DNA of 55,679 nucleotides from an uncultured Methanosarcinales archaeon. GTDB taxonomy: Archaea; Nanobdellota; Nanobdellia; Woesearchaeales; CAYZNE01. The stretch covers positions 43,394 to 99,072 of the forward strand of contig CAYWRI010000001.1 in NCBI GenBank assembly GCA_964461035.1, in the 5' to 3' direction. The first letter of the stretch is position 1. Every line of letters starts with the position of its first letter. This document shows, one piece after another, positions 1 to 54,552 of this stretch. The notes beneath the pieces are model-generated. The model made no database searches and was not told the DNA's origin. It saw only the letters and a list, made by a program, of their open reading frames with translations. A program made the position numbers and the translations under genes.

Positions 1-1587
1 CTTGAATTTATAAAATCGGGTGCAACTTTATTAATACCTGAAATAACTGAACAGCCAATAGCTATTGGAGATATTGATAAAAATTATCCTGGTTTAGAAT
101 TAGCATTTGTTGAACATCAAAACAGTTATTTACATGTATATCATTCAGATGGAACTATTGTGGAAAATTTTCCCACTCAAGAACGTATGAATGTGAACCA
201 ATATGTTGCAGTTGGCGATATTAATAATAATGGTCATTTAGAACTTGTAGCTATAGGTAGAAATAATCAGGATAATTACATATACATATTTAATGATGAA
301 GGAGAATTATTAAACACTATTGAATTATTTGAAAGTGGAACATCAGTTGTTTTAGAAGATATTAATAATGATGGAAATTTAGAATTGATTGTTTCTCATT
401 GGTATCAAGAAAACTCATGGATAACTAAAGTTTACAATTTACTTGGCGAAAATTTATATAATTTTTCAGGAGGAAATATGTTTTTTATGCCTTCTGTAGC
501 AGATATAGATAATGATAATTTAGTAGATATTATCATAAGCTCGGAAAATAATGATGATACAAATATAATTGCATATGATATTAATTCTGGTTTAAAATGG
601 CAAAGATTACTTCAAGGTGAAATAGCTGGAGAAGTAGTTATTGGAAATATTGATGCCACTTCAGAAGAATTAGAAATTGTGGCAATTACTTGCGAGTATG
701 GTGATTATTGTAAAATTCATGTTTTAGATTCTGATGGTGATTATTTGAATGAAAATTGGCCAAAAACGATTTCATACCCTGAAAATTTTTATGGAACAAG
801 CACTATATCCTTAAGTAATATGAATCCTACAGATAATAATTTAGAAATACTTTTTTCTATGTCTAACGAAATTCATGTTTTAGATTCTGAGGGTGAATAC
901 CTAAATGAAAATTGGCCAAAAACAGTAGCGGGTTATGGAATATCATCAATTTCTACTGCAGATTTAGATGATGATCAATTTCCAGAAATAATAGTTGGTT
1001 CTCCATCATCATTAAATATTTTTAATTATTTGGGTGAAAATTTTATTGATCCTATTCAATCACAAAGTCAAAATTTATACCCTGTTGTTTCAGATATTAA
1101 TGTAAATGGTTTTTGGGATATAATCACAAGTTCTCATGAAATGGGAATTTATTTTGTAGATTTAAACAATGACTATAAAAGCCATTCGCAAGAATGGTCA
1201 ATGTTTCAACATGATGTAAAACACACTGGAAAATATACAAATCCTGAACTAAATGTTCTATTAGGTGATGTTAATGATGATCAATTAGTTGATTCTTTTG
1301 ATGCAAGTTTAGTTTTAAACTATTTTGTGTTAAATGAAATAAATTTTGAAAATTGGCAGATTATTGCTGCAGATGTGGATTGTAATGGTGCAATAGAATC
1401 ATATGATGCAGCACTTATTTTAAGATATTCTGTAGGTATAATTGATCAATTTCCTTGTGAATTTGAAGGAAGATATGATAAAAATGAATTATCTGTGTTG
1501 AATAAATGTATAAATAATATTAATGTAGATTTAAACAAAAATAATCTTCAAAAAGAACTAACTAATTGTTTAAGCGTTATGCATTAA
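1..1587 (+). CDS. FG-GAP/VCBS-like repeat (beta-propeller) protein with C-terminal dockerin type I domain and Cys-containing tail; 5'-truncated by the window edge
   Basis: Frame is open from base 1 (LEFIKSG...). Repeats such as VAVGDINNNGHLELV, ADIDNDNLVDII and TADLDDDQFPEIIVGS; WSMFQHDVKHTG motif; paired dockerin Ca-loops GDVNDDQLVDSFD / ADVDCNGAIESYD. Confidence 0.8.
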   Translation, partial: LEFIKSGATLLIPEITEQPIAIGDIDKNYPGLELAFVEHQNSYLHVYHSDGTIVENFPTQERMNVNQYVAVGDINNNGHLELVAIGRNNQDNYIYIFNDEGELLNTIELFESGTSVVLEDINNDGNLELIVSHWYQENSWITKVYNLLGENLYNFSGGNMFFMPSVADIDNDNLVDIIISSENNDDTNIIAYDINSGLKWQRLLQGEIAGEVVIGNIDATSEELEIVAITCEYGDYCKIHVLDSDGDYLNENWPKTISYPENFYGTSTISLSNMNPTDNNLEILFSMSNEIHVLDSEGEYLNENWPKTVAGYGISSISTADLDDDQFPEIIVGSPSSLNIFNYLGENFIDPIQSQSQNLYPVVSDINVNGFWDIITSSHEMGIYFVDLNNDYKSHSQEWSMFQHDVKHTGKYTNPELNVLLGDVNDDQLVDSFDASLVLNYFVLNEINFENWQIIAADVDCNGAIESYDAALILRYSVGIIDQFPCEFEGRYDKNELSVLNKCINNINVDLNKNNLQKELTNCLSVMH

Positions 1588-6727: not shown

Positions 6728-6988
6728 TTAAGATAAAAATGTTTCTTTTAATACATCAATATATGCTTTTGTGATTTTACCTTCATTATAAAAAGCATTA
6801 AATTTAAGAGTTTTATTAAATTTATTCGTATGTTCAAATGCTACTGGTTCTGGTTGATCAAAACAAGATTCTCCTCCAGGACGAACATTTCTTTTTTCAC
6901 TCATATAAAAATTTTTGTTTCTAAATATGATAAATGAACCATTAAGTTGAACCAATTGAGCATTTTCAAATTTAAAAACAAATGGCAT
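6728..6988 (-). CDS. hypothetical protein (86 aa)
   Basis: ORF only; in tandem with the next minus-strand ORF. Confidence 0.4.
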   Translation of the reverse strand: MPFVFKFENAQLVQLNGSFIIFRNKNFYMSEKRNVRPGGESCFDQPEPVAFEHTNKFNKTLKFNAFYNEGKITKAYIDVLKETFLS

Positions 6989-7005
6989 GAGTATTCTATG
7001 ATACG

Positions 7006-7362
7006 CTAAAATTGAATCCTTTTTTTTTGTGTCATACTAATACGGGTTGTTGCTACCCAATTAGAAACAGGGGTGATATTAATTGTATGGGTTTCCAAAT
7101 AATCTTCATAACCAGGAATCAAAGAAGCCTTATCATAATTTTTCCGAAATTCATGAGATTCAACATTATTATAAGTTCTATTTTGTAAATCAATAACTTC
7201 ATCAAAAAAAGTAACTAAACCCTCCAGAATATCTGCAGATCTTCGATCTCGAGAAGACTCTATTTCTGGACGATATAATTCTAAAACTTTATTAGCATCC
7301 ATTGTAAACTCTTGAATGAGCTTTGAAATAATTTCATCAATTTTATTCGCGAATTTAGACAT
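7006..7362 (-). CDS. hypothetical protein (118 aa)
   Basis: ORF with an upstream TTTAAATAAA TATA-like element. Confidence 0.5.
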   Translation of the reverse strand: MSKFANKIDEIISKLIQEFTMDANKVLELYRPEIESSRDRRSADILEGLVTFFDEVIDLQNRTYNNVESHEFRKNYDKASLIPGYEDYLETHTINITPVSNWVATTRISMTQKKRIQF

Positions 7363-7440
7363 TTGTGAAAGGAATGAACAAGTTTATTTAAACTTTTCTT
7401 CATCATTAAAAAAAGATTTATAAAAACTTAAAATAAATTT

Positions 7441-8589
7441 ATGTTTATGAGGAAAGAAATATTTATTCTTATGATTTTTGTAGTTTCTTGCAGTAGTGTG
7501 TTTGCATCTACAATTACTAGATATGGTTCTGATTTTACTATTGTTGAGAAGGAAATTTCATTTAAAGTAAATGATAGATTAGGTACTGAAAGATTAAGTT
7601 TTGACTATGAGTATGTGGGTTCTGGATTTAATAATTTGCCTTATGGGCAACAATTAAAAAATAAAGATGTTAAATTAGGATTTAACAACAAAGAATTAGA
7701 CGATACTGATAACTACTATTTTAATGCTCGTTATTATGATTATGACTCTGGTAAGTTTTTAGGTGTCGATCCAATTAATGATAATCCTGCTTATGCTTTT
7801 GTTTCCAATAACCCAATGAATTATATTGATCCAAGCGGACTTATTGAAAAACAACCAATTGATACGGGTGAAATTTTTAACAGGAATGGATTAGCTTATT
7901 TCATTGATTTGAAAGTTGATTCTATTGGAGAAGAATTCATTAATCACATGTCTGATGAAATTCTCACCATTATGAATGAAGAATACAAGTCTGAAATACC
8001 TCAGGAAAATAAACGTATCTTATATCTTGCCAAATATGTTGATGATACAATTTGGGATAGCACTAATTACGCTGAAGAGAGACAAAAATCTGGCCATTAT
8101 CTTGATCCTTACTCACCAATTAAATTTTTGAATCCTTTAGGATTAGGCAACTTTTTTAGTTTAATTCATTCTATTGAAAGAGACATTGTTGAGGTAGTAA
8201 ATGAAGGGGTTTGCGTTGAGAAATCTATATTAACAGTGCTGATTCTTGAAGACTTCATTGACAAGCAAGAACTATCCGATAAATATGGTGTTTACTACGA
8301 AACAGTCAGTGCTAAAACCAAGAGGTATTTTATTGACGAAAACTATGAAGAAAAGACTCTTAGAACAGAAGCGTTATTTGGTCATGCATATGTTGTGATT
8401 GAAGACTTTTCTTCAGGCAAGGAATATTTTTTGACAAAAGGGAAGATATATGACTCTTTTGAAGACTTTACAGAAGTTGTTTACATGGGAAACTATGGTC
8501 CTGTAGATGTAAAGAATGGTCACACAATTTATTATGAAAATTCTTATGAAAGAGGAGAAAAACAATATTTACTTCAATCAGAAGAATGA
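7441..8589 (+). CDS. mini-Rhs protein 1: signal peptide + Rhs-associated core + transglutaminase-like (Cys/His) C-terminal domain
   Basis: DRLG, LPYGQ, YYFNARYYDYDSGKFLGVDP and NNPMNYIDPSG Rhs-core motifs; C-terminus has GVCVEKSILTVLIL and GHAYVVIED. Confidence 0.85.
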   Translation: MFMRKEIFILMIFVVSCSSVFASTITRYGSDFTIVEKEISFKVNDRLGTERLSFDYEYVGSGFNNLPYGQQLKNKDVKLGFNNKELDDTDNYYFNARYYDYDSGKFLGVDPINDNPAYAFVSNNPMNYIDPSGLIEKQPIDTGEIFNRNGLAYFIDLKVDSIGEEFINHMSDEILTIMNEEYKSEIPQENKRILYLAKYVDDTIWDSTNYAEERQKSGHYLDPYSPIKFLNPLGLGNFFSLIHSIERDIVEVVNEGVCVEKSILTVLILEDFIDKQELSDKYGVYYETVSAKTKRYFIDENYEEKTLRTEALFGHAYVVIEDFSSGKEYFLTKGKIYDSFEDFTEVVYMGNYGPVDVKNGHTIYYENSYERGEKQYLLQSEE

Positions 8590-8628
8590 TTTTTAATTAA
8601 ACGAGTGATAAATAATAGTATATAACCT

Positions 8629-8660
8629 ATTAAAAAAAGATTCATAAAGAATATATTAAT
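8629..8660 (+). promoter_or_regulatory. BRE/TATA-like element nearly identical to the tRNA-Lys promoter
   Basis: ATTAAAAAAAGATTCATAAAGAATATATTAAT vs ATTAAAAAAGATTTATAAAGAATATATTAAT at 10105-10135. Confidence 0.5.
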
Positions 8661-8850
8661 CACTCAAATGAACTAATTGATGAAGAGAATTTCTTAACGC
8701 TAACTTACAGTAATAGCTTTAAATTATCTGAGCCTGGATTAGTTAGAGTACATCCAGAATAATCATTTAATAAGATAAATAATGTGAGTTAATTTTTAGA
8801 GAAACAATAGAAAATCTGAAAAAAATTTATAAAACGCCAAAACAAAAATT

Positions 8851-10041
8851 ATGGTTATGCGAAAAGAAATATTTATTCTTATGATTTTTGTAGTTTCTTG
8901 TAGTTCAGTATTTGCATCTACAATTACCAGATATGGTTCTGACTTTACAATTGTTGAGAATGAAATTTCATTTAAAGTAAATGATAGATTAGGTACTGAA
9001 TGATTAAGTTTTGAAGATGAGTATGTGGGTTCTGGATTTAATAATTTGCCTTATGGGCAACAATTAAAAAATAAAGATGTTAAATTAGGATTTAACAACA
9101 AAGAATTAGACGATACTGATAACTACTATTTTAATGCTCGTTATTATGATTATGACTCTGGTAAGTTTTTAGGTGTCGATCCAATTAATGATAATCCTGC
9201 TTATGCTTTTGTTTCCAATAACCCAATGAATTATATTGATCCAAGCGGAATGGACAATATATTGTACATCCACGCCAACTATGAAACAACAGATCATAAT
9301 GATGCATTTGCAGATGAAACAAAAGAAAGCTATGAATCAGAAGGTCATACAGTTACAGAAATAGTTATTGAAACTTCTGAACAATTTGAACAAGCACTAG
9401 AAACTGCATACAAACAATTTGAAAATACAGGAGAAAAATACGATTTTTTCATTTTGGGAGGACACGGAAATAAATATGAGATAAAGTTGTCTGATTATGA
9501 TGTAAATCATAACGGAAAAGAAGAGTTATCGTATTCAGATATGAAAAAATTAAATGTTGATAAAAAAGACAAATATTTCAACATGTTATCTACTAACGCA
9601 GAAGGGTGTTTACATAGTTGTTCAGGTGCAGAAACCACTATTGGAAAATCTTATGATCTAGGAACTGATGCTGGCAGTCATCCTCGACATTATCCTAATT
9701 CTAAAGCCCAAGAACTTTCTAATTTATTAAATATTCCTATCTATGCAATGATTGGTCATGGCAACATCTTATTTGATAAGAAAGCTTTAACTCCTATGAA
9801 AATTAATTGGAATATTGTTAAAATTGAACATAAAAACTTAGAAATTATACATGGATCAATAGTTTATGAAGAAAGAATCATAGATTATTCTGATAAAACT
9901 GTAATTCAAATAATTAGAAGCATGTATTTCTTGGACGAACAGATTGCTCAAAAAATTAACGACATAATTACGGGTGCAAAGAAAATAAGTGAAAAAAAAC
10001 GTGTTATTAATCCAAACTTGGTCGTTGTTTATCCAGAATAA
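8851..10041 (+). pseudogene. mini-Rhs protein 2 interrupted by an in-frame TGA at 9001-9003; caspase-like (HG...SC) C-terminal domain
   Basis: 5' part aligns with copy 1 at offset 1410; the AGA codon of copy 1 is TGA here; the frame continues through DPSG into FFILGGHG...LHSCSG. Confidence 0.8.
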
Positions 10042-10162: not shown

Positions 10163-10236
10163 GACCTCATGGCTCAGTCTGGTAGAGCAGCCGGCTCTTA
10201 ACCGGCAGGTCGGGGGTTCGAATCCCCTTGGGGTCA
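10163..10236 (+). tRNA. tRNA-Lys (CTT)
   Basis: Acceptor GACCTCA/TGGGGTC, anticodon arm GCCGG-CT-CTT-AA-CCGGC, T-loop TTCGAAT. Confidence 0.96.
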
Positions 10237-10247
10237 TCAATTTATTT

Positions 10248-10991
10248 TTATATATCAATATCTATTAAGTCGTAAGCTAATATGGTATTTTGAAAAAACT
10301 CTTTTGTTTGTTTAAGTCTCACTTCTTCAGATATTGGATAAAGATGAGTGAGAACAAGCTTTTTGACCTTTGCTTTTGTAGCAATTAGACCGCATTCTTT
10401 AGGAATAAGATGCGATGAGGACTTACGATTATTATCAAAAGAACATTCTAAAACTAAAACATCTGCATTTTTTGAAAAGTTAATTATGTCTTCATTATAG
10501 TACATATCTCCTGCAATTACTAATGTTTTATTTTTTTCTATAAATTTGAATGCAAGACTTTCTTCAGTATGTACTGTACTAAGTGTGAAAACTGAAAAGT
10601 TATCAAATACGAGTTCATCTTGATTAATCTCTTTAATATTTATTTCAAATTTTGGCGGATTTTTAGTAAATACGAGAGGTTCAATATAAGTAGTATATAA
10701 TTTTTTAAAACCTTTCGGCCCAATTATTTGCAATTCTTTAGTTTTATCAAGATGTGGATATTTTAAAGCCCATAAAATAACATACAATTCTGCAAAATGA
10801 TCAATATGAAAATGAGAAATAAAAATTATGTCTATATCTTGAATAGGAATTTTGGCTTGTGATAGTCTAACTAGAGTTCCGCTACCGCAGTCTACTAATA
10901 TTTGTTTATTTCCAATTCTAATATAATTTGAAGCTGAAACTCTGTCTTTTGAAACTTGACTTGTTCCTGTTCCTAATATTTTAAGATTCAT
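10248..10991 (-). CDS. MBL-fold metallo-hydrolase (RNase Z/BN-like)
   Basis: ILGTGTS, LVDCGSG, SHFHIDH, GDMYY, LECSF, SHL, LTHLYP motifs. Confidence 0.88.
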   Translation of the reverse strand: MNLKILGTGTSQVSKDRVSASNYIRIGNKQILVDCGSGTLVRLSQAKIPIQDIDIIFISHFHIDHFAELYVILWALKYPHLDKTKELQIIGPKGFKKLYTTYIEPLVFTKNPPKFEINIKEINQDELVFDNFSVFTLSTVHTEESLAFKFIEKNKTLVIAGDMYYNEDIINFSKNADVLVLECSFDNNRKSSSHLIPKECGLIATKAKVKKLVLTHLYPISEEVRLKQTKEFFQNTILAYDLIDIDI

Positions 10992-16012: not shown

Positions 16013-16090
16013 TTATATCACAATCTATGTAATGATTCTAAAATATATAAATCTTTGGTTTGCTTTTTTAAATTATCTAAGAATAAAAAA

Positions 16091-16173
16091 CGCCAAGGCC
16101 CAGATTCGAACTGGGAATAGCCTAAGCTACTGGATCTCAAGTCCAGCCGAGTACCGGATTGTCGCACCTTGGC
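16091..16173 (-). tRNA. tRNA-Ser (TGA)
   Basis: Acceptor GCCAAGG/CCTTGGC, G73, anticodon arm CTGGA-CT-TGA-GA-TCCAG, long variable arm, T arm CCCAG-TTCGAAT-CTGGG. Confidence 0.93.
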
Positions 16174-16175
16174 AA

Positions 16176-16298
16176 TGCGGATGAGGAGACTTGAACTCCC
16201 GACCTCCAGATGGCTCAGCACACGAATAATCATTGCCTTGCAGCTCATCACTCATGGATTTATGAGTCTGGCGCTCTAACCAACTAAACTACATCCGC
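16176..16298 (-). tRNA. tRNA-Met (CAT, probably elongator) with a 49-nt intron at 37/38 (intron 16212-16260)
   Basis: Acceptor GCGGATG/CATCCGC, CCAGA-CT-CAT-A|intron|A-TCTGG; central BHB helix C32-A35 pairs with the intron's 3' TGAG. Ile2 identity cannot be excluded from sequence alone. Confidence 0.9.
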
Positions 16299-24815: not shown

Positions 24816-25988
24816 TTATTCAAATCTTCTAGCTTCTGCTTCAAAAACATTCTTTTCTAAATAATTTTCACCAAAATCAAAATCTCCTGATAACTTATAC
24901 TCTATATGAAAAGGTGCTGCTTCTGCAATAAAGTTAGTTATTGTTTTTATTAACACGCCTGTAAAAACAGATACTTCTTGTTCTTTATAATCCTCTTTGG
25001 TCCATTTAGATAATCTTGGTTGTACAGATTGAGTAAAAAGAGTAGTACGTTCCTCAAATTGTAGCGTATGAATCCATTCATGGCGAAGAATAGAATTTTT
25101 ATCCTTATAACCATTAGTTGAGACAACTATTGAATTACCTGAAGAATCTCCTCCCCAAGAAGAATCATGAAAAATTAATGAACCTGTTTTAACACTATCT
25201 TTAAAAGAAAATTTCTGGCCAAGTATTATACGACCTGTAGTTACCAGTAGAGTAAGAGGAGAAGGAGTTAATTTTAATCCTTCAGATCCTACTTCTACAT
25301 ATGCTGGACCAATAAGAGTTCGATAGGAAGAAAACCAATTATCTCCTTTTATCGCATTGCCTTTTATTGAAGTACCCGCACTATGCATCAGTTTTGTGGG
25401 GTAGAATTGATTCTGGTTATGAATGAAAAACTCTTTAGATCCTGCTTCAATAGCGCCTCCAAGCAATCCTGCTGCAAATCCCTTCCAAAATCCGTTTCCT
25501 TCAAAATATGAATTAGTTCCAGTCCATATAGCGCTTGAAGTCATTGCAACCATAAAACTTTCAGCAGTATTTCCTACTCTTTCATCAGGATTATTACCAT
25601 CAGAATCAACATAATTCATTGGATTATTAGAAACATAGGAATAAGCATGATTGTCACGCACAGGATCAACTCCAAGGAACTTACCAGAATCATAGTCATA
25701 ATAACGAGCATTAAAATAATAATTATTTGTATTATCTAATTCTTTACCTGTAAAACTGAATTTAATATTATTATTTTTTAATTGTTGACCATAAGGTAAA
25801 ACATTCGATTCAGTAACAACATTCTCATCATCGAGAGTTAGTCTATCACTACCTAACCTATCAGTAACCTTAAAATTAATTTCATTATTAACAATCTCGA
25901 AATCAGAACCATAACGCGTAATTGTTGAAGCATTCACACTGTTTAAACAAAGTAAAAACAATAATAAAAATATGGTAAATTTATTCAT
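24816..25988 (-). CDS. mini-Rhs protein 3: signal peptide + Rhs core (DSDG) + Gly-rich hydrophobic segment + HExxH zincin-like C-terminus
   Basis: Rhs-core motifs as in copy 1; ILRHEWIHTLQ...FEAEARR. Confidence 0.85.
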   Translation of the reverse strand: MNKFTIFLLLFLLCLNSVNASTITRYGSDFEIVNNEINFKVTDRLGSDRLTLDDENVVTESNVLPYGQQLKNNNIKFSFTGKELDNTNNYYFNARYYDYDSGKFLGVDPVRDNHAYSYVSNNPMNYVDSDGNNPDERVGNTAESFMVAMTSSAIWTGTNSYFEGNGFWKGFAAGLLGGAIEAGSKEFFIHNQNQFYPTKLMHSAGTSIKGNAIKGDNWFSSYRTLIGPAYVEVGSEGLKLTPSPLTLLVTTGRIILGQKFSFKDSVKTGSLIFHDSSWGGDSSGNSIVVSTNGYKDKNSILRHEWIHTLQFEERTTLFTQSVQPRLSKWTKEDYKEQEVSVFTGVLIKTITNFIAEAAPFHIEYKLSGDFDFGENYLEKNVFEAEARRFE

Positions 25989-26094
25989 ATGTACAAAATA
26001 GAATTAAATCTTTAAAAATATTCTTGTAAAAAGAATTAAGAAAACAAGAATTAAAAAATAAGCACAGCATTGTAGTTAATAACTTCAAATCAAA

Positions 26095-27318
26095 TTAATT
26101 ATCATCCTTAGTTTCTGGTGAAACTTTAACAAGGTGATACGAATGCGTTTGAAAATTAGCAGTATTATCTAAAAGCTTAGTGGGATCAAAAACAACAGAA
26201 GACGGATCCTTTACATCTCTAATCTTAGCAACAATATTTTTAGACGAAACATATATATCCGGAGTAAGATGAAGATTAAGATACTCATCAAAAGAATAAC
26301 CAATACGTAAATATTCATTTTCATTTACTTTATAATAAACATATGAAACAAGAGTGTTTGGAGGATTTAGATAAGCATATTTTTTTTGCACATTTGTATA
26401 TTCAGCTATATCCTCTATAGGATCAAACGTAACAAGTCTATTATCATCAGGATCACAACTCTTAGGTATTAAAGTTTCCGCATCAATATTCATACTCCCT
26501 TCAATATCAATTGACCAAATATCCAAATTAAGCATATTCGCAAATGCCTGTGCATTAGAACAACCATCTTCTCTGGACGCCGCACCAGAGCAACTCTTTA
26601 AAATGCCTTCAGACCCACCTTTAAACATCTGCTGATACTCCGAACCCATATCCTCAATATTACTACCAAATAAATACATATCACCTAAAAGCATCATTCT
26701 TGGTTGACCATGAGCTCCAAATATAAAAAAATCATATTGTTCTCCCGTGGCTGAAAATTTCTCCAACGCCAAAGTAAAAGCCTCCTTAAACTCCGCAAGA
26801 TCATTTATAACATACTCATCAACAGTATGACCTTTAGACTCATATTTTTTACTAGTTTCAGACTTAAAAGCACCATTATAATCACCAGTCTCATAATTTG
26901 CATGTATATACAAAATATTCTCCAATCCTGAAGGATCAATATAATTCATAGGATTATTAGAAACATAAGCATAAGCATGATTGTCAGAGACAGGATCAAC
27001 TCCTAGGAACTTACCAGAATCATAGTCATAATAACGAGCATTAAAATAATAATTATTTGTATTGTCCAATTCTTTACCTGTAAAACTAAATTTAACATTA
27101 TTATTTTTTAATTGTTGACCATAAGGTAAAACATTCGATTCAGCAATAACATTTTCATTGTTAAGTGTTAGTCTATCACTACCCAACCTATCATTAATTT
27201 TATAAGAAATCTCATTACCAATAATTTTGAAATCAGAACCATAATGCGTAATTGTTGAAGCATTTACACTGCTTAAACAAAGTAAAAATAGTAATAAAAA
27301 TATGGTAAATTTATTCAT
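26095..27318 (-). CDS. mini-Rhs protein 4: signal peptide + Rhs core (DPSG) + caspase-like C-terminus homologous to that of copy 2
   Basis: LENILYIHANYET...FFIFGAHG...LKSCSG, matching copy 2. Confidence 0.85.
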   Translation of the reverse strand: MNKFTIFLLLFLLCLSSVNASTITHYGSDFKIIGNEISYKINDRLGSDRLTLNNENVIAESNVLPYGQQLKNNNVKFSFTGKELDNTNNYYFNARYYDYDSGKFLGVDPVSDNHAYAYVSNNPMNYIDPSGLENILYIHANYETGDYNGAFKSETSKKYESKGHTVDEYVINDLAEFKEAFTLALEKFSATGEQYDFFIFGAHGQPRMMLLGDMYLFGSNIEDMGSEYQQMFKGGSEGILKSCSGAASREDGCSNAQAFANMLNLDIWSIDIEGSMNIDAETLIPKSCDPDDNRLVTFDPIEDIAEYTNVQKKYAYLNPPNTLVSYVYYKVNENEYLRIGYSFDEYLNLHLTPDIYVSSKNIVAKIRDVKDPSSVVFDPTKLLDNTANFQTHSYHLVKVSPETKDDN

Positions 27319-27416
27319 ATACACAAAATGGAGTTAAATCTTTAAAAATATTTTTAAAAATTTAGAATCGAACAATAAGAATCTACGGAAGAGTATGAAA
27401 AGAATTTATAAATAAA

Positions 27417-44198: not shown

Positions 44199-46706
44199 AT
44201 GCGTCAAAAAAAGAGTTTTTTAAAGCAAAGTTTGAATATGATTTCAAGCACATTTAACAAAACAAAGGAATTTATTAAAAAAAGAAAAAAAGTTCTTATT
44301 ATAATCCTGGGTTCATTTATTTTATTTCTTATTCTTCTATTTATTCTAGGAATAAAAATTGGTTTTATGACTCAAACAGAATTAAATATCAGAATTAATC
44401 CGCTTCACGAAGTTATAAATGCTGAAGTAAACAAACCTGTTGAAGTCGAATTTAAAATAGAAAACAATAATTTTTGGATGTGCAACACACAATGCGAATT
44501 TACATTATACGATCCTTATACTCAAAAAATAATTCAACAAGAAAGTGAAGCTGTAAACTCAAATATTTTACTAAAAAAAACATATGTGATTAGTTCATCT
44601 GAAGCTGAGCGAGGTCAGAGATTATTTTATTTTGAAGCCAAATGTCGTAATATAAAATCAACACTTTGTCAAACAGAAGAAAAAGAATATTATTCTTCAT
44701 CTTTAATTACTGCTAATTATGAATATTCAAAAGAAACAAAAACAGAAATTGAAGCGCTTTTAACAGATTTAAACAAATTTATTTCAGGTTCTGAAAAATC
44801 TAATTCTCTTGCTAAAGATATAAATTTAATATTGAATAATATCAAAGGAAAAATTAATTACTCAACCGATATTTCTAATGAAGAAAAAATTATTTCTGAA
44901 AATCTTCAAAAAAATCAAATGATTCAAGACTTTTGGCAGAATAATTCTTATGATTCAATAAAAAATATTTTCAATACTGACAATACTTTAGAAATAACAA
45001 AGATATTTGAATCATTATCTATGAAAAAATCCCTGCTTCTTAGTAATATAGAAACTTATAATTTGCTAGTAGATAAAATGGATTTTCTTAATAATTTAGT
45101 AGATAAAGAAATTCTTAATGCAGAACAATTCTATAGATTATTTAATTTTGATGACAAAGTTGAAAATATAACGATTGTTAGGTTAAGATTGAATAATTTA
45201 AAATCTAATTTTTATAAAACAAATATTGAATCCATTCAAACATTATTAATTAATGCAGAATCTATTGAAACGTATGCAGTCAAAATTCTTAATCAATATA
45301 ACCAAGATTATGTTGAATATTTGACTGGATTAAAATTAGGAGAACATAAATTAATTCAAGAAAGATATAATTCTTTGCGTTTAGAAGCAAACATGTCTTT
45401 AGATTTAAATTATGAGAAAGACGAATGTGATGCAGTTGATTTAATCCTCAATAACTATATTACTACAAGAATTTTTGCAAATGAAAAAATAATTGAAAAT
45501 CTTGGTGTTGAATTTATTTGTGAAAACAATTGTTCAGAAGAAATATTAAATAATAACTCTATGAAAATACTTTCAGGTCTTAGAAATAGTATTAAGCTTG
45601 AAGATTATAATTTTGAATTTAATTCAACTGAAAATAAATATACTTTTAATAATACAGAAACAATTTATGATTCAAATGGATTAAGTTTTATTGATTATAT
45701 AAAAATGGTAAAAGTATATGAATCAGAGTTCAGTGATTTAAATTTCTTTTTGATGAATCTTTGTTTTCTTGATAATATACGAAGAATATCACAGACGAAA
45801 ATGAACAAAATAAATAACACATTTTCTTTTGATAATTATTTGAATTTACTGGCCAAATTAGAATATCCTGAAGAGAAATGTTGTATATTTAATTCTTGTC
45901 AAAAATGTGTGGATAAATCTGATAAATATCCTGTGATTTTGTTACACGGTCATAATTTTAATAAATATAACCCCATACAAAGTATTGTGAATTCTATGAC
46001 ATCTATTCAAAGAAAACTAAGTGTTGATGCACATTTTATTAATGGTGCCGAAGTCGATCTTGCAGATGTAAATGAATCTGAAATGTGGTCAAAAATGAAT
46101 GTGCCTCTTGCAATTAGAGCAAGTTATTATTATATATCTTATTATGATTTTGAAATATATTCAGTTTCAACCATGTCTGAAGAAAGTATAGAGAATTATG
46201 CAATAAGATTAAGAGAAATAATAAATCTTGTAAAACAAAAAACTGGTGCAGAAAAAGTAGATATTATTGCTCATTCAATGGGTGGACTTGTTGCTAGGTA
46301 TGAATTATTTTTATTTGATGATGAAGATGTTAATAAACTAATTCTAATTGGAACACCAAATAAAGGAATCATTGGAAAAGTTGAAGAACTATGTCCAACA
46401 TTTGGTGCTAAGAAAGAATGTGCAGATATGAATATTAATAGTATAATTCTAAAAAAACTTAATTCTGTAAGAAATATCCCTGAAAATACTAACGTGTTCA
46501 ACATATATGGAACAGGTTGCGATATGGATGGCGAAGATGGAGATGGAATTGTAATTGCTAAAAATGCACACTTAGATTTTGCAACAAATATAGAAATAAA
46601 AGGTCAATGCAATGATTTTCTTAATTTAGAAATGCATAATAATTTAATTAGGGTTAATGAATATCCTGAAGTATATGATGCAGTCATTGATATATTAGAG
46701 AATTAA
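44199..46706 (+). CDS. large membrane-anchored protein with a C-terminal alpha/beta hydrolase (lipase/PGAP1-like) domain
   Basis: N-terminal TM helix; PVILLHG, IAHSMGGL, IGTPNKG, GDGIV, MHNNL (Ser-Asp-His triad). Confidence 0.82.
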   Translation: MRQKKSFLKQSLNMISSTFNKTKEFIKKRKKVLIIILGSFILFLILLFILGIKIGFMTQTELNIRINPLHEVINAEVNKPVEVEFKIENNNFWMCNTQCEFTLYDPYTQKIIQQESEAVNSNILLKKTYVISSSEAERGQRLFYFEAKCRNIKSTLCQTEEKEYYSSSLITANYEYSKETKTEIEALLTDLNKFISGSEKSNSLAKDINLILNNIKGKINYSTDISNEEKIISENLQKNQMIQDFWQNNSYDSIKNIFNTDNTLEITKIFESLSMKKSLLLSNIETYNLLVDKMDFLNNLVDKEILNAEQFYRLFNFDDKVENITIVRLRLNNLKSNFYKTNIESIQTLLINAESIETYAVKILNQYNQDYVEYLTGLKLGEHKLIQERYNSLRLEANMSLDLNYEKDECDAVDLILNNYITTRIFANEKIIENLGVEFICENNCSEEILNNNSMKILSGLRNSIKLEDYNFEFNSTENKYTFNNTETIYDSNGLSFIDYIKMVKVYESEFSDLNFFLMNLCFLDNIRRISQTKMNKINNTFSFDNYLNLLAKLEYPEEKCCIFNSCQKCVDKSDKYPVILLHGHNFNKYNPIQSIVNSMTSIQRKLSVDAHFINGAEVDLADVNESEMWSKMNVPLAIRASYYYISYYDFEIYSVSTMSEESIENYAIRLREIINLVKQKTGAEKVDIIAHSMGGLVARYELFLFDDEDVNKLILIGTPNKGIIGKVEELCPTFGAKKECADMNINSIILKKLNSVRNIPENTNVFNIYGTGCDMDGEDGDGIVIAKNAHLDFATNIEIKGQCNDFLNLEMHNNLIRVNEYPEVYDAVIDILEN

Positions 46707-46734: not shown

Positions 46735-49281
46735 TTAAGTTTTCTCTTTTAAAGACAAGGATGATTTTTTATCTTCAATACATTTCATTAACTCTTCTTC
46801 AAGTAATTGAGTGTCTGACGTTATTTTGATACTAGCTATACAAGTATTTGTTTTTTTAACTAGTTCTTCATCATACCTTCCACCACTATTACAAGGAAAT
46901 TCGTCTATTATCTCAGTTATGTATTGAAGAATAAAGCTAGAATCAAAAGATTCAATAACTTCATTACAATCCACATCTGCAGAAATTAATTGCCAATCTT
47001 CAAACGCAATCATTTCTGCTGAATATCTTAAGACCAAAGCAACATCGTATGAATCAATAACTCCATTACCATCAACATCACCTAATGGGTGAGTGTTTGC
47101 ACAAGTTCCATCTAATTGACAATAAGTTTCTTCTGAACAACCACATTGCTGACAATTATTAATTAATTCGCCTTCAACACAATAGAACGGCTGTTCGTCA
47201 GAACAAGAATCATCCATGGTTCCATCATCACAAGTAATCCAAACTTCATTGCAATATAAATAATTTTCATTATACGCTGGCCACCCATCTGCGCAAGAAC
47301 TTACTTCACCGAAATTATTTCCATAACCTGAAGTACTTTCTGAACCCGCACACAAAACATCTCCCATAAAAGTGTCTGAGTCACAAATTCTATTATTTGT
47401 AATTATTGTATTATGGGAAAGTAAAATAGATAATCCTGCATCAAACATTAGATATCCAAAAGAATAAATAATATTGTTATTTATTAAAGTTCCATCATTT
47501 GTAATATGCAGTTTAATTCCCCCTTTATTGCTATTATTGATATTGTTGTTTATTAAGGAAAAATTGTCTGAGTTTTCTATGAGTATTCCTTCTAAACCAT
47601 TATTATTGATATTGTTGTTTATTAAGGAAAAATTGTCTGAGTTTTCTATGAGTATTCCTTCTAAAGAACTATTGGTTAGATTATTATCAATTATGAAAAA
47701 ATGGGTTGAATCCTTTATGATGATACCCTCCTTAGTAAAACAAATACTATTATTAACTATAGATATATTGTGTGAGTTCCATATGTTAATTTTCGATTTA
47801 TGGTTCATAATATTGTTTTTTATTTCAACATTGTTAGTTTCCGAACCTAAATCAAAAGACTGTCCATTATGACTAAAAGAATTATTAGTAAGTAATAAAT
47901 TTTCAGAATAAGAAAAATCAAATCCTGCATTAAAACCTGCAAGAATACAATTTTTTATAGTTGCATTATTAACGTGCCATAACTCCAAATAAGTTCCCGA
48001 ACTTGGTTTTGGAGCAACAATTTCTGCTTGTTCTAGCGCATCACAATCTATTAACAAATTATTCTCATATATGATTTGAATTGTGGGTTCATCGTAATTA
48101 TACACCCAAATTTCGGTTTCGACAACATTATCTTTACTAAATCCTTGAGTTTCTTGATTTAAATCAGAAACTATAATTTCAAATTTTAGAATAGTATATT
48201 GTAATTTACTAATAGTCCAAGTAAAATCTGTTACTTCTATAAAATTTTGATTAGGAACTGCATTAACAAATCGTGTTTCTTCTAATATGTTATCAATATA
48301 AAAATTAACCTGTAATTCTGAAAGTTCTAAATTATTATATCCTGAAAAATTTATTGTTAAATTAAAAATTTTTTCTAGATTTTCAGAGTCAAATATGATA
48401 TTAGAACCATAGTAACCTTGAAATACATTGAAACTTGATTCAAGTTTATCAATCCAAACATTTTTTAATAGATTTACTGAAAAGTCATCGTCATTTAAAT
48501 CCTTTATAAGATTACCTTCAGAATCCTCAACACAATTATTACTACAATTAGTAGTATCTTCAGATTTACCCCAATAACAATAATCATCATTATCATTATC
48601 AGAACAATAAACAGAAATATCATTTGTTGGATAGGGATATTTAGAGAAACCAAACGCACTTAATTCATTTAAAATAACATATCCTTCTTCCCCCCAGTCT
48701 TCTCCCCACGAATTTTTAATAATAAGATTATCATCTTCAGTATATCCTGTAAAAACCATTGCATGTCCCCAAGACCCCACCACTACTCCTCCAGGACCAT
48801 ATTTAAATAAACTTGATTTCGTTGAATAGGGAGAGAGATATTCTGTTGTTAAGTCGCCAATATTCCACGCATTTTCAGGATTTTCACAAATATTACAAGC
48901 AATATTTTCTGCCTGATAAGGGAAGCAATCTTCTAAAACCAATGAACCGTCTAAAAGATATTCATATGCATTACTTACTCCGCCACCAGCACAATCTCCA
49001 CAATCCTCGCAACACTCACCATCATTTGAAACTAATTGTTGTTCAGATAAATCAACATCTAACTGTTGATTGTAAAATAAATTTATTTGACCTTCAATTG
49101 ATCCAACAGCAGAAAAAGCCCAGCAACTTCCACATTGTTCCTGATTTTTAACAGGGGTCATCCAATTTTGACCCATGTAATCACGGTAATCTAAAGAATC
49201 TGGATAATTCCCTAGAGATTCTGCATTCACTAAAGATATTAACAGTAAAGATAATAAGATTAATAAAAATATTTTTTTCAT
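46735..49281 (-). CDS. secreted papain-family (C1A) cysteine protease with Ig-like domain, parallel beta-helix repeats, Cys-rich region and C-terminal dockerin + tail
   Basis: Signal peptide; DYR...WMTPVKNQEQCGSCWAFS, DLSEQQLV, GHAMVFTGY, KNSWG; IENSDNFSLINNNI repeats; GDVDGNGVIDSYD / ADVDCNEVIESFD. Confidence 0.9.
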   Translation of the reverse strand: MKKIFLLILLSLLLISLVNAESLGNYPDSLDYRDYMGQNWMTPVKNQEQCGSCWAFSAVGSIEGQINLFYNQQLDVDLSEQQLVSNDGECCEDCGDCAGGGVSNAYEYLLDGSLVLEDCFPYQAENIACNICENPENAWNIGDLTTEYLSPYSTKSSLFKYGPGGVVVGSWGHAMVFTGYTEDDNLIIKNSWGEDWGEEGYVILNELSAFGFSKYPYPTNDISVYCSDNDNDDYCYWGKSEDTTNCSNNCVEDSEGNLIKDLNDDDFSVNLLKNVWIDKLESSFNVFQGYYGSNIIFDSENLEKIFNLTINFSGYNNLELSELQVNFYIDNILEETRFVNAVPNQNFIEVTDFTWTISKLQYTILKFEIIVSDLNQETQGFSKDNVVETEIWVYNYDEPTIQIIYENNLLIDCDALEQAEIVAPKPSSGTYLELWHVNNATIKNCILAGFNAGFDFSYSENLLLTNNSFSHNGQSFDLGSETNNVEIKNNIMNHKSKINIWNSHNISIVNNSICFTKEGIIIKDSTHFFIIDNNLTNSSLEGILIENSDNFSLINNNINNNGLEGILIENSDNFSLINNNINNSNKGGIKLHITNDGTLINNNIIYSFGYLMFDAGLSILLSHNTIITNNRICDSDTFMGDVLCAGSESTSGYGNNFGEVSSCADGWPAYNENYLYCNEVWITCDDGTMDDSCSDEQPFYCVEGELINNCQQCGCSEETYCQLDGTCANTHPLGDVDGNGVIDSYDVALVLRYSAEMIAFEDWQLISADVDCNEVIESFDSSFILQYITEIIDEFPCNSGGRYDEELVKKTNTCIASIKITSDTQLLEEELMKCIEDKKSSLSLKEKT
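47532..47665. repeat. exact 65-bp tandem duplication (69-bp period) adding one beta-helix turn
   Basis: 47532-47596 is identical to 47601-47665; the protein has LEGILIENSDNFSLINNNINN twice. Confidence 0.9.
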
Positions 49282-53364: not shown

Positions 53365-54552
53365 TTACTCATCAATATCTTCTAAATTCAAATCAGTTGT
53401 TTGAATTGTAGAATCAGGAAATATTGGCTCATACAAAATAAAATCAAAAGAGTCAGAAAATTTATCATAGTTTCTAGGAGTTCTAGCATAAATTGAATAA
53501 TAGTCATCATCAAAATCTGAATATTTTAGAAAAATATCATAATAAAATCTTTCAGGCATGCCTTTTATTCTTCTACCAATATTTTCCGAAGCTATTGCAA
53601 CAGATTCACCGTAGGTTAATCTATTCGTTTTATCGGGAGATAACAATAAACCTCTCACATGACCTAATTCATGAATTAAAGCAATAGCGGGGTCACTAAA
53701 CGAAATTTCTTGCCCCCACTTGCCAAGATTTAAAACAGAATTATCAATAGACGTAGATTCTTGAATAACTAAATGATTCTTACCTATAAAAAATCCTGCA
53801 GGATTTAAACTTCTCATATAAACAATATTAACTTCTTCTGAATGTTCAATAACATCATTAATTATTCTAAATAAACTCCTCTTATCACTATTTGTTCCAT
53901 CGTAAACCTCTTTTGAAGTAATATATCCAAAATCATCAGCATAAAATAAATCATCCTCAAAAAAAGAATTTAAGTTATCAACAACATTAACAAGAGTATC
54001 ATCAAAATTTAAAACTTCACGATTAGCATCTTCACCCAAAACATAAGTTGAAATATCAACAATATTAAGAAGAGTATCTTCAAGATAAACATTCTCATCA
54101 TCAATATAAGTTGAAATATCCATACATGCCTCAGAAACAGGAACCACTTTAAGTCGCATACCATCAGGATCAATCATATTCATAGGATTATTGGAAACAT
54201 AAGAATAAGCATGATTATTACTCACAGGATCAACTCCAAGGAACTTACTAGAATCAAAATCATAATAGCGTGCATTAAAATAATAATTATTACTTGCATC
54301 TAATTCCTTACCCGTAAAACCAAACTTAACATTACTATTTTTTAATTGTTGACCATACGGTAAATTATTTGATTCAGCAACAACATTCTCATCGTCAAGA
54401 GTTAATCTATCACTACCCAATCTATCATTAATTTTAAAAGAAATCTCATTACCAACAATTTTAAAATCAGAACCATAACGCGTAATTGTTGAAGTAGCTA
54501 CACTGCTTAAACAAAATAAAAATAGTAATAAAAATATGATAAATTTATTCAT
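53365..54552 (-). CDS. mini-Rhs protein 5: signal peptide + Rhs core (DPDG) + HExGH zincin-like C-terminus
   Basis: Rhs-core motifs; DPAIALIHELGHV...GESVAIASENIGRRIKGMPERFYY. Confidence 0.85.
   Translation of the reverse strand: MNKFIIFLLLFLFCLSSVATSTITRYGSDFKIVGNEISFKINDRLGSDRLTLDDENVVAESNNLPYGQQLKNSNVKFGFTGKELDASNNYYFNARYYDFDSSKFLGVDPVSNNHAYSYVSNNPMNMIDPDGMRLKVVPVSEACMDISTYIDDENVYLEDTLLNIVDISTYVLGEDANREVLNFDDTLVNVVDNLNSFFEDDLFYADDFGYITSKEVYDGTNSDKRSLFRIINDVIEHSEEVNIVYMRSLNPAGFFIGKNHLVIQESTSIDNSVLNLGKWGQEISFSDPAIALIHELGHVRGLLLSPDKTNRLTYGESVAIASENIGRRIKGMPERFYYDIFLKYSDFDDDYYSIYARTPRNYDKFSDSFDFILYEPIFPDSTIQTTDLNLEDIDE

Follow-up and report, generated by a model that had tools for sequence, protein, structure and literature searches.

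How does an archaeal genome come to carry neighbouring genes that agree base for base up to one particular codon and have nothing in common after it? The 55,679-nucleotide stretch of contig CAYWRI010000001.1 analysed here (the window, to which all coordinates refer) raises this question through a family of small genes, named c1 to c5, each of which is predicted from its sequence to be a complete unit with its own TATA-like promoter, a signal peptide, an N-terminal module of 131 codons (the N module) and an exchangeable tail of about 250 amino acids. The tails are named CT1 to CT5, CT standing for the part after the junction with the N module. The copies form two tandem pairs, c1-c2 and c4-c5, and c3 stands singly; an earlier note on this DNA had described four copies, all of which are borne out, and had missed the fifth, c5. 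Taken as a whole, the evidence is probably best explained by a recombining multigene family of small secreted polymorphic proteins, in which an identical tract shared by c1 and c2 reflects conversion between their conserved Rhs-type cores.

The tract lies on the forward strand, at 7607-7839 in c1 and at 9017-9249 in c2, and pairwise alignment of the two arms gives 233 identical bases out of 233. It covers the Rhs core as far as the Gly of DPSG, the second DPxG motif of the core, whose codons GAT CCA AGC GGA (7828-7839, forward strand) mark the junction. The final shared base is the third base of GGA, and the following codon is CTT (Leu) in c1 and ATG (Met) in c2; 3' of this point the DNA of the two genes is unrelated, as are CT1 and CT2 at the protein level (BLASTP E=1.5). 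On the other side of the tract, 15 differences are found in 166 nucleotides (nt; 7441-7606 compared with 8851-9016), 14 of them within the 160 nt after the MRKE start codon and the remaining one in an alternative upstream start. The extent of the identity, its end on the last base of the Gly codon, a preceding stretch of about 166 bp with some 15 differences and the unrelated sequence beyond the junction had all been reported in the earlier note, and each of these observations holds.

The N module has exactly 131 codons without insertions or deletions in all copies, which makes a position-by-position comparison possible. When the 14 differences are scattered over the 393-nt module by random permutation, an uninterrupted identical run of at least 233 nt arises with P=3e-5, and the analytic chance that all 14 fall in the first 160 nt is P=2.4e-6. 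Since the differences are so far from randomly distributed, the tract is best read as the product of a recent homologous exchange, or of gene conversion, restricted to the core, and it stops at the Gly codon because homology stops there. Constraint at the nucleotide level does not explain the identity of c1 and c2, because the same segment varies freely among the other paralogues, where 20-57 differences were counted (76-91% identity, with the tandem pair c4/c5 at 91.4%). Among the 11 differing codons 5' of the tract, seven are synonymous versus four non-synonymous, and this mostly synonymous divergence indicates that both 5' parts were functional through most of their divergence and that a stop codon now interrupting c2 is recent.

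The three other copies lie on the reverse strand. c3 (53365-54552) joins a group-B N module to a tail with the motif HELGH (HExxH...E), and c4 (26095-27324, with its junction between 26925 and 26926) joins a group-B N module to a caspase-like tail. c5 (24816-25988) follows c4 in tandem, 106 nt downstream, and has a degenerate VDSDG junction (Pro to Ser) and a tail with HEWIH; a relative, P0009, carries a c5-type tail on a normal DPSG core. The TATA-like box of all three is ATATTTTTAAA, about 20 nt before the ATG. The N modules group as (c1,c2) and (c3,c4,c5), and the tails pair c2 with c4: the latter two have homologous tails (32% identity, E=8e-35, BLASTP) on N modules just 72.8% identical in DNA. 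The N modules of c3 and c4 are 86.8% identical in DNA, and their likeness ends at residue 133, beyond which the C-termini are unrelated. Homologous tails on different N subtypes and unrelated tails on a shared subtype had both been claimed for these pairs before, and rightly so. The group-B modules are themselves mosaic, with c3/c4 closest up to nt 175 (91%) and c4/c5 closest from nt 183 (91%), a breakpoint to which a maximum chi-square test with permutation assigns P=0.0018. This breakpoint lies not far from nt 160/161, where the c1/c2 tract starts, and close to the beginning of the Rhs core. A weak likeness between CT1 and CT5 in tblastn was dropped, because it loses significance once the two tails are compared by themselves.

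To place these genes within a wider family, we used an exhaustive HMMER search over 1.84 billion representative proteins, which returned 27173 relatives in all, with 768 representatives at E<1e-10. The best 150 relatives are nearly all 350-430 amino acids long and carry the module at the N-terminus. Nothing came back when the c1 N module and CT2 were used as queries in word-indexed protein searches, a null result that reflects the limited sensitivity of such searches, given what the exhaustive search recovered. The 149 tails obtained from the best 150 relatives fall into 114 BLAST clusters, 93 of which are singletons. Identity across the junction was followed in 210 pairs whose tails are unrelated and whose cores agree at 85% or more: it is 1.00 at the Gly and drops to 0.38 at the next position, 0.23 at +2, 0.11 at +3 and +4 and about 0.06 from +5, reaching background by +3. 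By sequence comparison, tails that are unrelated thus follow near-identical cores throughout the family. Core and C-terminus kinship proved incongruent, a point on which the earlier note had asked for separate trees: among the 56 proteins having a tail relative, that relative sits on the nearest N module in just seven (a nearest-relative comparison in a library clustered at 50% identity), and N-module kinship does not predict the tail.

Tandem arrays of relatives were found on four contigs from three related JGI metagenomes (L002, L003, L004 and L006), and two of these repeat the pattern of c1 and c2. L003 (1563-2846) and L006 (1-1284) are 99.77% identical over 1284 bp, with all three mismatches in the last 66 nt of the core, and their divergence is complete directly after the GGT of DPSG. 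L003 then runs into the tail of L004 (L003 1563-2864, L004 1-57; a 57-nt overlap at 100% identity), and L006 into the tail of P0004, an arrangement found in three separate assemblies. Judged from these contigs, the pair is a second, independent homology switch at the same codon. This switch and the family-wide incongruence together suggest that the conserved core serves as a recombination handle for swapping unrelated tails. Tails of the L003 type and of the L006 type are both present in sample Ga0307990.

Within the window, the two genes that share the tract differ in one respect that bears on how tails might be stored. c1 is intact (7441-8589, forward strand, closed by TGA at 8587-8589). It is preceded by the TATA-like box TTTATAAAA at 7417-7425, about 20 nt before the first ATG, and opens with a predicted Sec-type signal peptide, MRKEIFILMIFVVSCSSVFA (7447-7506), which is hydrophobic (mean Kyte-Doolittle value 2.84) and presumably cleaved; CT1 (7840-8586) is a tail of 249 amino acids with no Pfam match and no relative among the 149 tails. 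c2 (8851-10041, forward strand) has the architecture of c1 and the same putative TATA-like motif at 8826-8834, and is interrupted by an in-frame TGA at 9001-9003, which the earlier note had overlooked. c1, c3, c4 and c5 have AGA (Arg) at this site, and the Arg is invariant in the family. CT2 (9250-10038, forward strand), a homologue of CT4, nevertheless remains free of stops over 263 codons, a state that was reached in none of 20000 shuffles. We therefore interpret c2, from its reading frame, as a recently silenced gene or stored cassette whose tail is intact, and since it has its own TATA-like box the silenced copy is still a complete gene, with no sign of being a promoterless fragment. The c1-c2 pair is bounded by a tRNA-Lys(CTT) gene at 10163-10236 (forward strand), 122 nt after c2; the depth over this gene is high in the public runs, reflecting tRNA conservation.

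Were TGA read as a sense codon (genetic code 4 or 25), c2 would be intact, but this reading was rejected. TGA closes eight of the 46 long open reading frames of the window, that of the archaeal FEN-1 among them, the frequency of TGG (0.90%) is normal, and the interrupted position is an invariant Arg site. The JGI gene caller did take TGA as Trp on L011/L022, which correspond to window positions 6800-9086, so that the JGI protein P0159 reads past the c1 stop and the JGI call for c2 reads past the premature stop. These calls are a code-4 gene-calling artefact of a low-GC (guanine plus cytosine) contig and no evidence of recoding.

What kind of protein do these genes encode? c1 to c4, the copies covered by the scan, score 57-61 bits (58 for c1) against NCBIfam TIGR03696, the model of the Rhs-associated core domain, whose cut-off is 32.5, and in protein sequence the c5 N module shares 81-85% identity with its counterparts in c3 and c4. 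The core ends in NNPMNYIDPSG[L/M], that is PxxxxDPxG[L/M], with DSDG instead in c5. When the N module is used as a profile, it aligns to the ~110 residues leading up to the cleavage site in solved proteins, among them TccC3, YenC2, RHS2, several Rhs structures from type VI secretion systems (T6SS) and teneurin-like structures (best E 6e-19). The Asp of both DP motifs and the D and G of the junction motif are invariant in 36 relatives. The N module accordingly corresponds to the end of an Rhs/TcC protein, comprising the final shell strands and the aspartyl-protease 'plug'.

The solved proteins carry 550 to 2600 shell residues before the matched stretch in every case, and in the window genes only ~110 mature residues precede the junction. 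A hydrophobic, signal-peptide-like N-terminus takes the place of the shell, as is also predicted in 119 of 128 short relatives, and at most 170 amino acids stand before DPxG in 133 of 147 relatives. Pfam did not find RHS_repeat, the YD-repeat shell, in the copies, and gave no match at the N-terminus to a delivery domain (PAAR for the T6SS, LXG for the type VII secretion system, or TcB), the short hydrophobic stretch being found there instead. Directly after DPxG, 83 of the 150 relatives have Met, where classical Rhs proteins have Leu, and ATG occupies this position in c2 and c3; the reason may be a preference at the cleavage site, or the tail may have an internal start codon of its own.

The host is an archaeon, as indicated by the Spt5, the Sec61-gamma-type SecE and the archaeal FEN-1 encoded in the window, all of which exceed curated cut-offs. 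These markers, the low GC content (28%), the marine metagenomic origin of the two public runs holding the window (X1 and X2) and a family member assigned to Woesearchaeota together suggest a DPANN-type origin. A scan of species-representative genomes yielded only a distant match in Bacilli. A viral contig scan gave no match, and there is thus no sign of a viral or mobile carrier.

The tails themselves partly resemble enzymes. In CT2, CT4 and four further homologues (six in all), H72-G73 and C112 are invariant. Over residues 1-157, most of an AlphaFold model of this tail type is of high confidence (10-residue block means 62-97), and a Foldseek comparison with the PDB placed SAVED-CHAT first (E=2.6e-5), followed by caspases, MALT1 and legumain, with modest TM-scores (0.3 over the full length) and no sequence-level match. 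We read CT2 and CT4 as a predicted caspase/CHAT-like (clan CD) cysteine protease domain with a His...Cys dyad. In the CT3 family, H163, E164, H167 and E185 are invariant in five homologues, giving HExxH plus a Glu 18 residues on, and CT5 shares HE[WF]IH with P0009, its one relative; these tails are candidate zincin-type metallopeptidases by their motifs, with no Pfam or PDB sequence match. The tails of c2 and c4 (caspase/CHAT-like) and those of c3 and c5 (HExxH motifs) therefore look like enzymes, as far as conserved residues and the modelled fold can indicate. Pfam and PDB sequence searches of the tails returned nothing usable.

Classical Rhs toxins have a small cognate immunity gene directly behind each tail. 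No credible same-strand open reading frame was detected in the gaps after c1 (262 nt), c2 (122 nt, running up to the tRNA-Lys gene) and c4 (106 nt), and none downstream of c5 or c3: beyond c5 there is a non-coding stretch and then an opposite-strand gene, and c3 meets a convergent open reading frame after ~110 nt. A frame of 35 amino acids starting with TTG (25981-26088) was rejected as an immunity gene, as it overlaps the conserved c5 promoter and its equivalent at c4 contains stops. The arrays of relatives on L003, L004 and L006 are packed as closely as the pairs of the window. With no immunity gene behind any of the copies, the most likely targets of the tails are ones that the producing cell does not have or keeps unexposed, such as a host, neighbouring cells or extracellular proteins.

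These results support a recent recombination or gene conversion event that homogenised the cores of c1 and c2 up to the end of their homology, and we propose that, more generally, tails are moved from gene to gene and from array to array by crossovers and conversions for which the conserved core would be the substrate. With its tail intact and its reading frame broken 5' of the tract, c2 would act like a stored cassette: a single crossover anywhere inside the 233-bp direct repeat would delete 1410 bp and thereby fuse the promoter, signal peptide and 5' N module of c1 to CT2. The proteins would be exported via Sec, and after export the core would probably cleave itself after DPxG[L/M], freeing the tail, by analogy with the biochemistry of Rhs and TcC proteins. 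Observed so far are the conversion tract, the silenced c2 with its intact tail, the incongruence and the L003/L006 switch; a recombinant molecule was not observed. A more specific and speculative proposal, which we regard as unlikely in its entirety, is that in small-genome (DPANN-type) archaea the end of an Rhs protein, freed from the shell, is exported by Sec, cleaves itself to release the tail and doubles as the recombination handle of a very large, immunity-free arsenal of effector enzymes used on hosts or neighbours. Silenced members such as c2 would in that case form a reservoir that is switched on or repaired by conversion or crossover.

The same recombination could alternatively serve a different biology, in which the genes encode diversifying secreted or surface hydrolases for feeding or host attachment and the Rhs core is a pro-domain or anchor. 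The absence of immunity genes after the copies fits this possibility, as do the recognisable tails, which are protease-like and not nuclease- or deaminase-like, and the presence in the window of other secreted dockerin hydrolases, one combining papain and beta-helix domains with dockerin and one combining FG-GAP with dockerin. However, 114 unrelated tail types on one handle are a hallmark of conflict systems and not of nutrient enzymes, and no tail matches a nutritional hydrolase family in Pfam. We consider this account possible, if rather doubtful.

Less plausible is that the pattern was created by assembly, either as a consensus path through two similar cores or by the joining of unlinked N modules and tails. 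The window does come from a metagenome assembly, and an exact repeat of 233 bp exceeds the usual k-mers. It was compared, at the level of contigs, with the contigs and unitigs of the two Logan runs X1 and X2, both of low depth (about 5-7x), and with JGI contigs. L011 equals window positions 6800-9086 at 100%, base for base, and contains the copy-1 repeat, CT1 and the 5' part of c2 with its TGA, ending 70 nt into the copy-2 repeat. In X2, one unitig (7552-7839) ends exactly at the junction, and two others, leading into CT1 (7810-8266) and CT2 (9220-9623), both start 30 nt before it, so that one core end continues into both tails in an independent sample. X1 holds a single contig over 7552-8892 without mismatch, no alternative contig of at least 97% likeness was present over 9017-9249 in X1 or X2, and the c4 and c5 junctions are crossed by contigs in both runs without branching. 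These independent contigs support both junctions and the stop codon.

Some features of the same contigs favour an artefact. Short-read contigs break at or near the repeats, L011 inside copy 2 and L003 18 nt past its junction, and in X2 the two branches together (4.25+4.77) are deeper than the unitig they share (6.8). The Logan contigs of both runs also lack three letters specific to c2, described below. Against this stand the contigs listed above and the 15 differences directly 5' of the tract, which were kept separate and show that the assembler could resolve near-identical copies, and we judge an assembly artefact to be improbable. Two further observations were made on these runs. In X1 the first 250 nt of CT2 (window 9250-9503) have no contig, with the rest of c2 and its 5' part present, and the contig passing 7839 enters CT1 unbranched; the gap may be a low-coverage dropout or another arrangement. 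X2 contains a contig joint 7546->9040, with only 25 nt on one side and 83 nt out of register.

A very recent tandem duplication of the N module with its promoter, after which either the 5' part alone changed faster or selection acted on the core at the nucleotide level, with no recombination between paralogues, has in its favour a tandem layout typical of duplication and a repeat unit that can be traced, promoter included, from 7409 to 7839 at 91-100% identity, but it is highly improbable because 15 changes in 166 nt and none in 233 nt are incompatible with a single age (P about 1e-5 to 1e-6), relaxed or positive selection on the 5' part is not indicated by its mostly synonymous changes, the core segment is free to vary at synonymous sites in c3, c4 and c5, and a simple duplication cannot yield two genes with unrelated tails.

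Several points nonetheless weigh against recombination within a family of secreted, tail-exchanging proteins. The tract itself shows homogenisation of the core and not a completed tail swap, and c2 is interrupted by a nonsense codon. The c2-specific 5' letters are linked to CT2 across the repeat solely in the window's own assembly, and the letters T9001, A9015 and G9016 do not appear in the Logan contigs of either X1 or X2; this may result from bubble popping, or from a tract that extends to 8962 and lacks the stop codon in those samples, which could then represent a c2 repaired in the manner suggested above. L003 and L006 are short-read contigs, of which L003 ends shortly after the junction, and a chimeric join through the identical core is possible. 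The 50% clustering of the library of relatives drops pairs that are alike over their whole length and so inflates the incongruence. With regard to the protein, AlphaFold modelled the isolated N module at a predicted local distance difference test (pLDDT) of 50, with no confident fold and too poorly for a fold search, which makes autonomous self-cleavage doubtful. Finally, no RNA-seq run was found to hold the region.

The surroundings of the genes include other features. A tRNA-Ser(TGA) gene was identified by ARAGORN at 16090-16174 on the reverse strand, and adjacent to it, on the same strand, lies a 123-nt Rfam tRNA match (16176-16298) that ARAGORN missed and that probably contains an intron. 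Further large, probably secreted proteins are encoded at 46735-49281 (reverse strand), 160-1587 (forward strand) and 44199-46706 (forward strand); they are a papain-family protease with beta-helix and dockerin, a protein with FG-GAP repeat and dockerin, and an 835-amino-acid protein with a PGAP1-like alpha/beta hydrolase domain. A protein with a metallo-beta-lactamase fold (10248-10991, reverse strand) adjoins the tRNA-Lys gene and gave a weak, sub-threshold match to the anti-Pycsar protein Apyc1 (30 bits, cut-off 50); it is most likely an ordinary metallo-beta-lactamase or RNase Z-like enzyme.

Polymorphic toxin systems and their immunity families have been reported as scarce in archaea (PMC3482391), and the window holds five Rhs-core genes within 55 kb of archaeal DNA, members of a family with at least 768 diverged representatives in metagenomes. 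The genes raise the questions of what role an Rhs 'plug' has without its cage and how more than 100 unrelated effector domains can be deployed without immunity proteins. If it is true that the tails hit the hosts or neighbours of episymbiotic archaea, they would open a first way into the molecular weaponry of these archaea. The literature searched yielded no paper on the shell-less architecture in archaea, on the tandem arrays or on the diversity of the tails. The same family in the same short architecture is present in NCBI and JGI records, where relatives of 260-400 amino acids, for example from Candidatus Woesearchaeota and Spirochaetota, are called 'RHS repeat-associated core domain-containing protein'; this is no more than a database label.

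The closest known counterpart is the enterobacterial Rhs locus, whose tails are demarcated by PxxxxDPxGL (PMC3150448). Passages of Poole et al. (2011; PMC3150448), where Jackson et al. (2009) is cited, describe orphan rhs-CT/rhsI 'silent cassettes' and C-terminal displacement at such loci, and a Yersinia orphan has an in-frame stop in its retained upstream sequence (PMC3150448). The window genes are alike in that the core ends in this motif with abrupt divergence after it, unrelated tails stand on near-identical cores, downstream copies keep upstream core sequence, at times with an in-frame stop, and core homology is the presumed substrate of recombination. They differ in lacking the YD-repeat shell of ~1000 residues, PAAR/VgrG or any other delivery domain and an immunity gene, in that every copy, the silenced one included, has its own predicted promoter, start codon and signal peptide, and in their archaeal host and frequent Met, instead of Leu, after the Gly. 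The proposal of the earlier note that recombination in the core reshuffles payloads as in Rhs loci thus stands with respect to recombination, given the distribution of differences, the incongruence in the family and the L003/L006 pair, and is incomplete as an analogy, given the missing shell and immunity gene and the separate promoters and signal peptides.

A second comparison is with TcC subunits and T6SS Rhs effectors such as TccC3, YenC2 and Rhs1 of P. laumondii, to whose last ~110 residues before the cleavage site the N module corresponds. In Rhs1 the Asp of the second DP motif is catalytic for C-terminal autocleavage after DPLGL (PMC8636562), and the two DP motifs with an invariant second Asp correspond to the aspartyl autoprotease by which the tail is released in those proteins (PMC8636562). 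Unlike in those proteins, where the plug is buried in a closed beta-barrel that encapsulates the toxin, in the window proteins there is nothing to plug. The orphan CdiA-CT/CdiI modules (PMC3150448) likewise have a short motif, VENN, that marks the exchange point, and tandem stored cassettes homologous to the expressed gene; they belong to an unrelated protein family with another secretion route and an obligatory immunity gene. Exchange by core recombination ending at DPxG is therefore a known principle of Rhs proteins, expected for proteins of this kind and not new. Because the shell, the delivery domain and the immunity gene that define Rhs systems are all missing, we file the system as a shell-less archaeal variant of Rhs and not as a classical Rhs locus.

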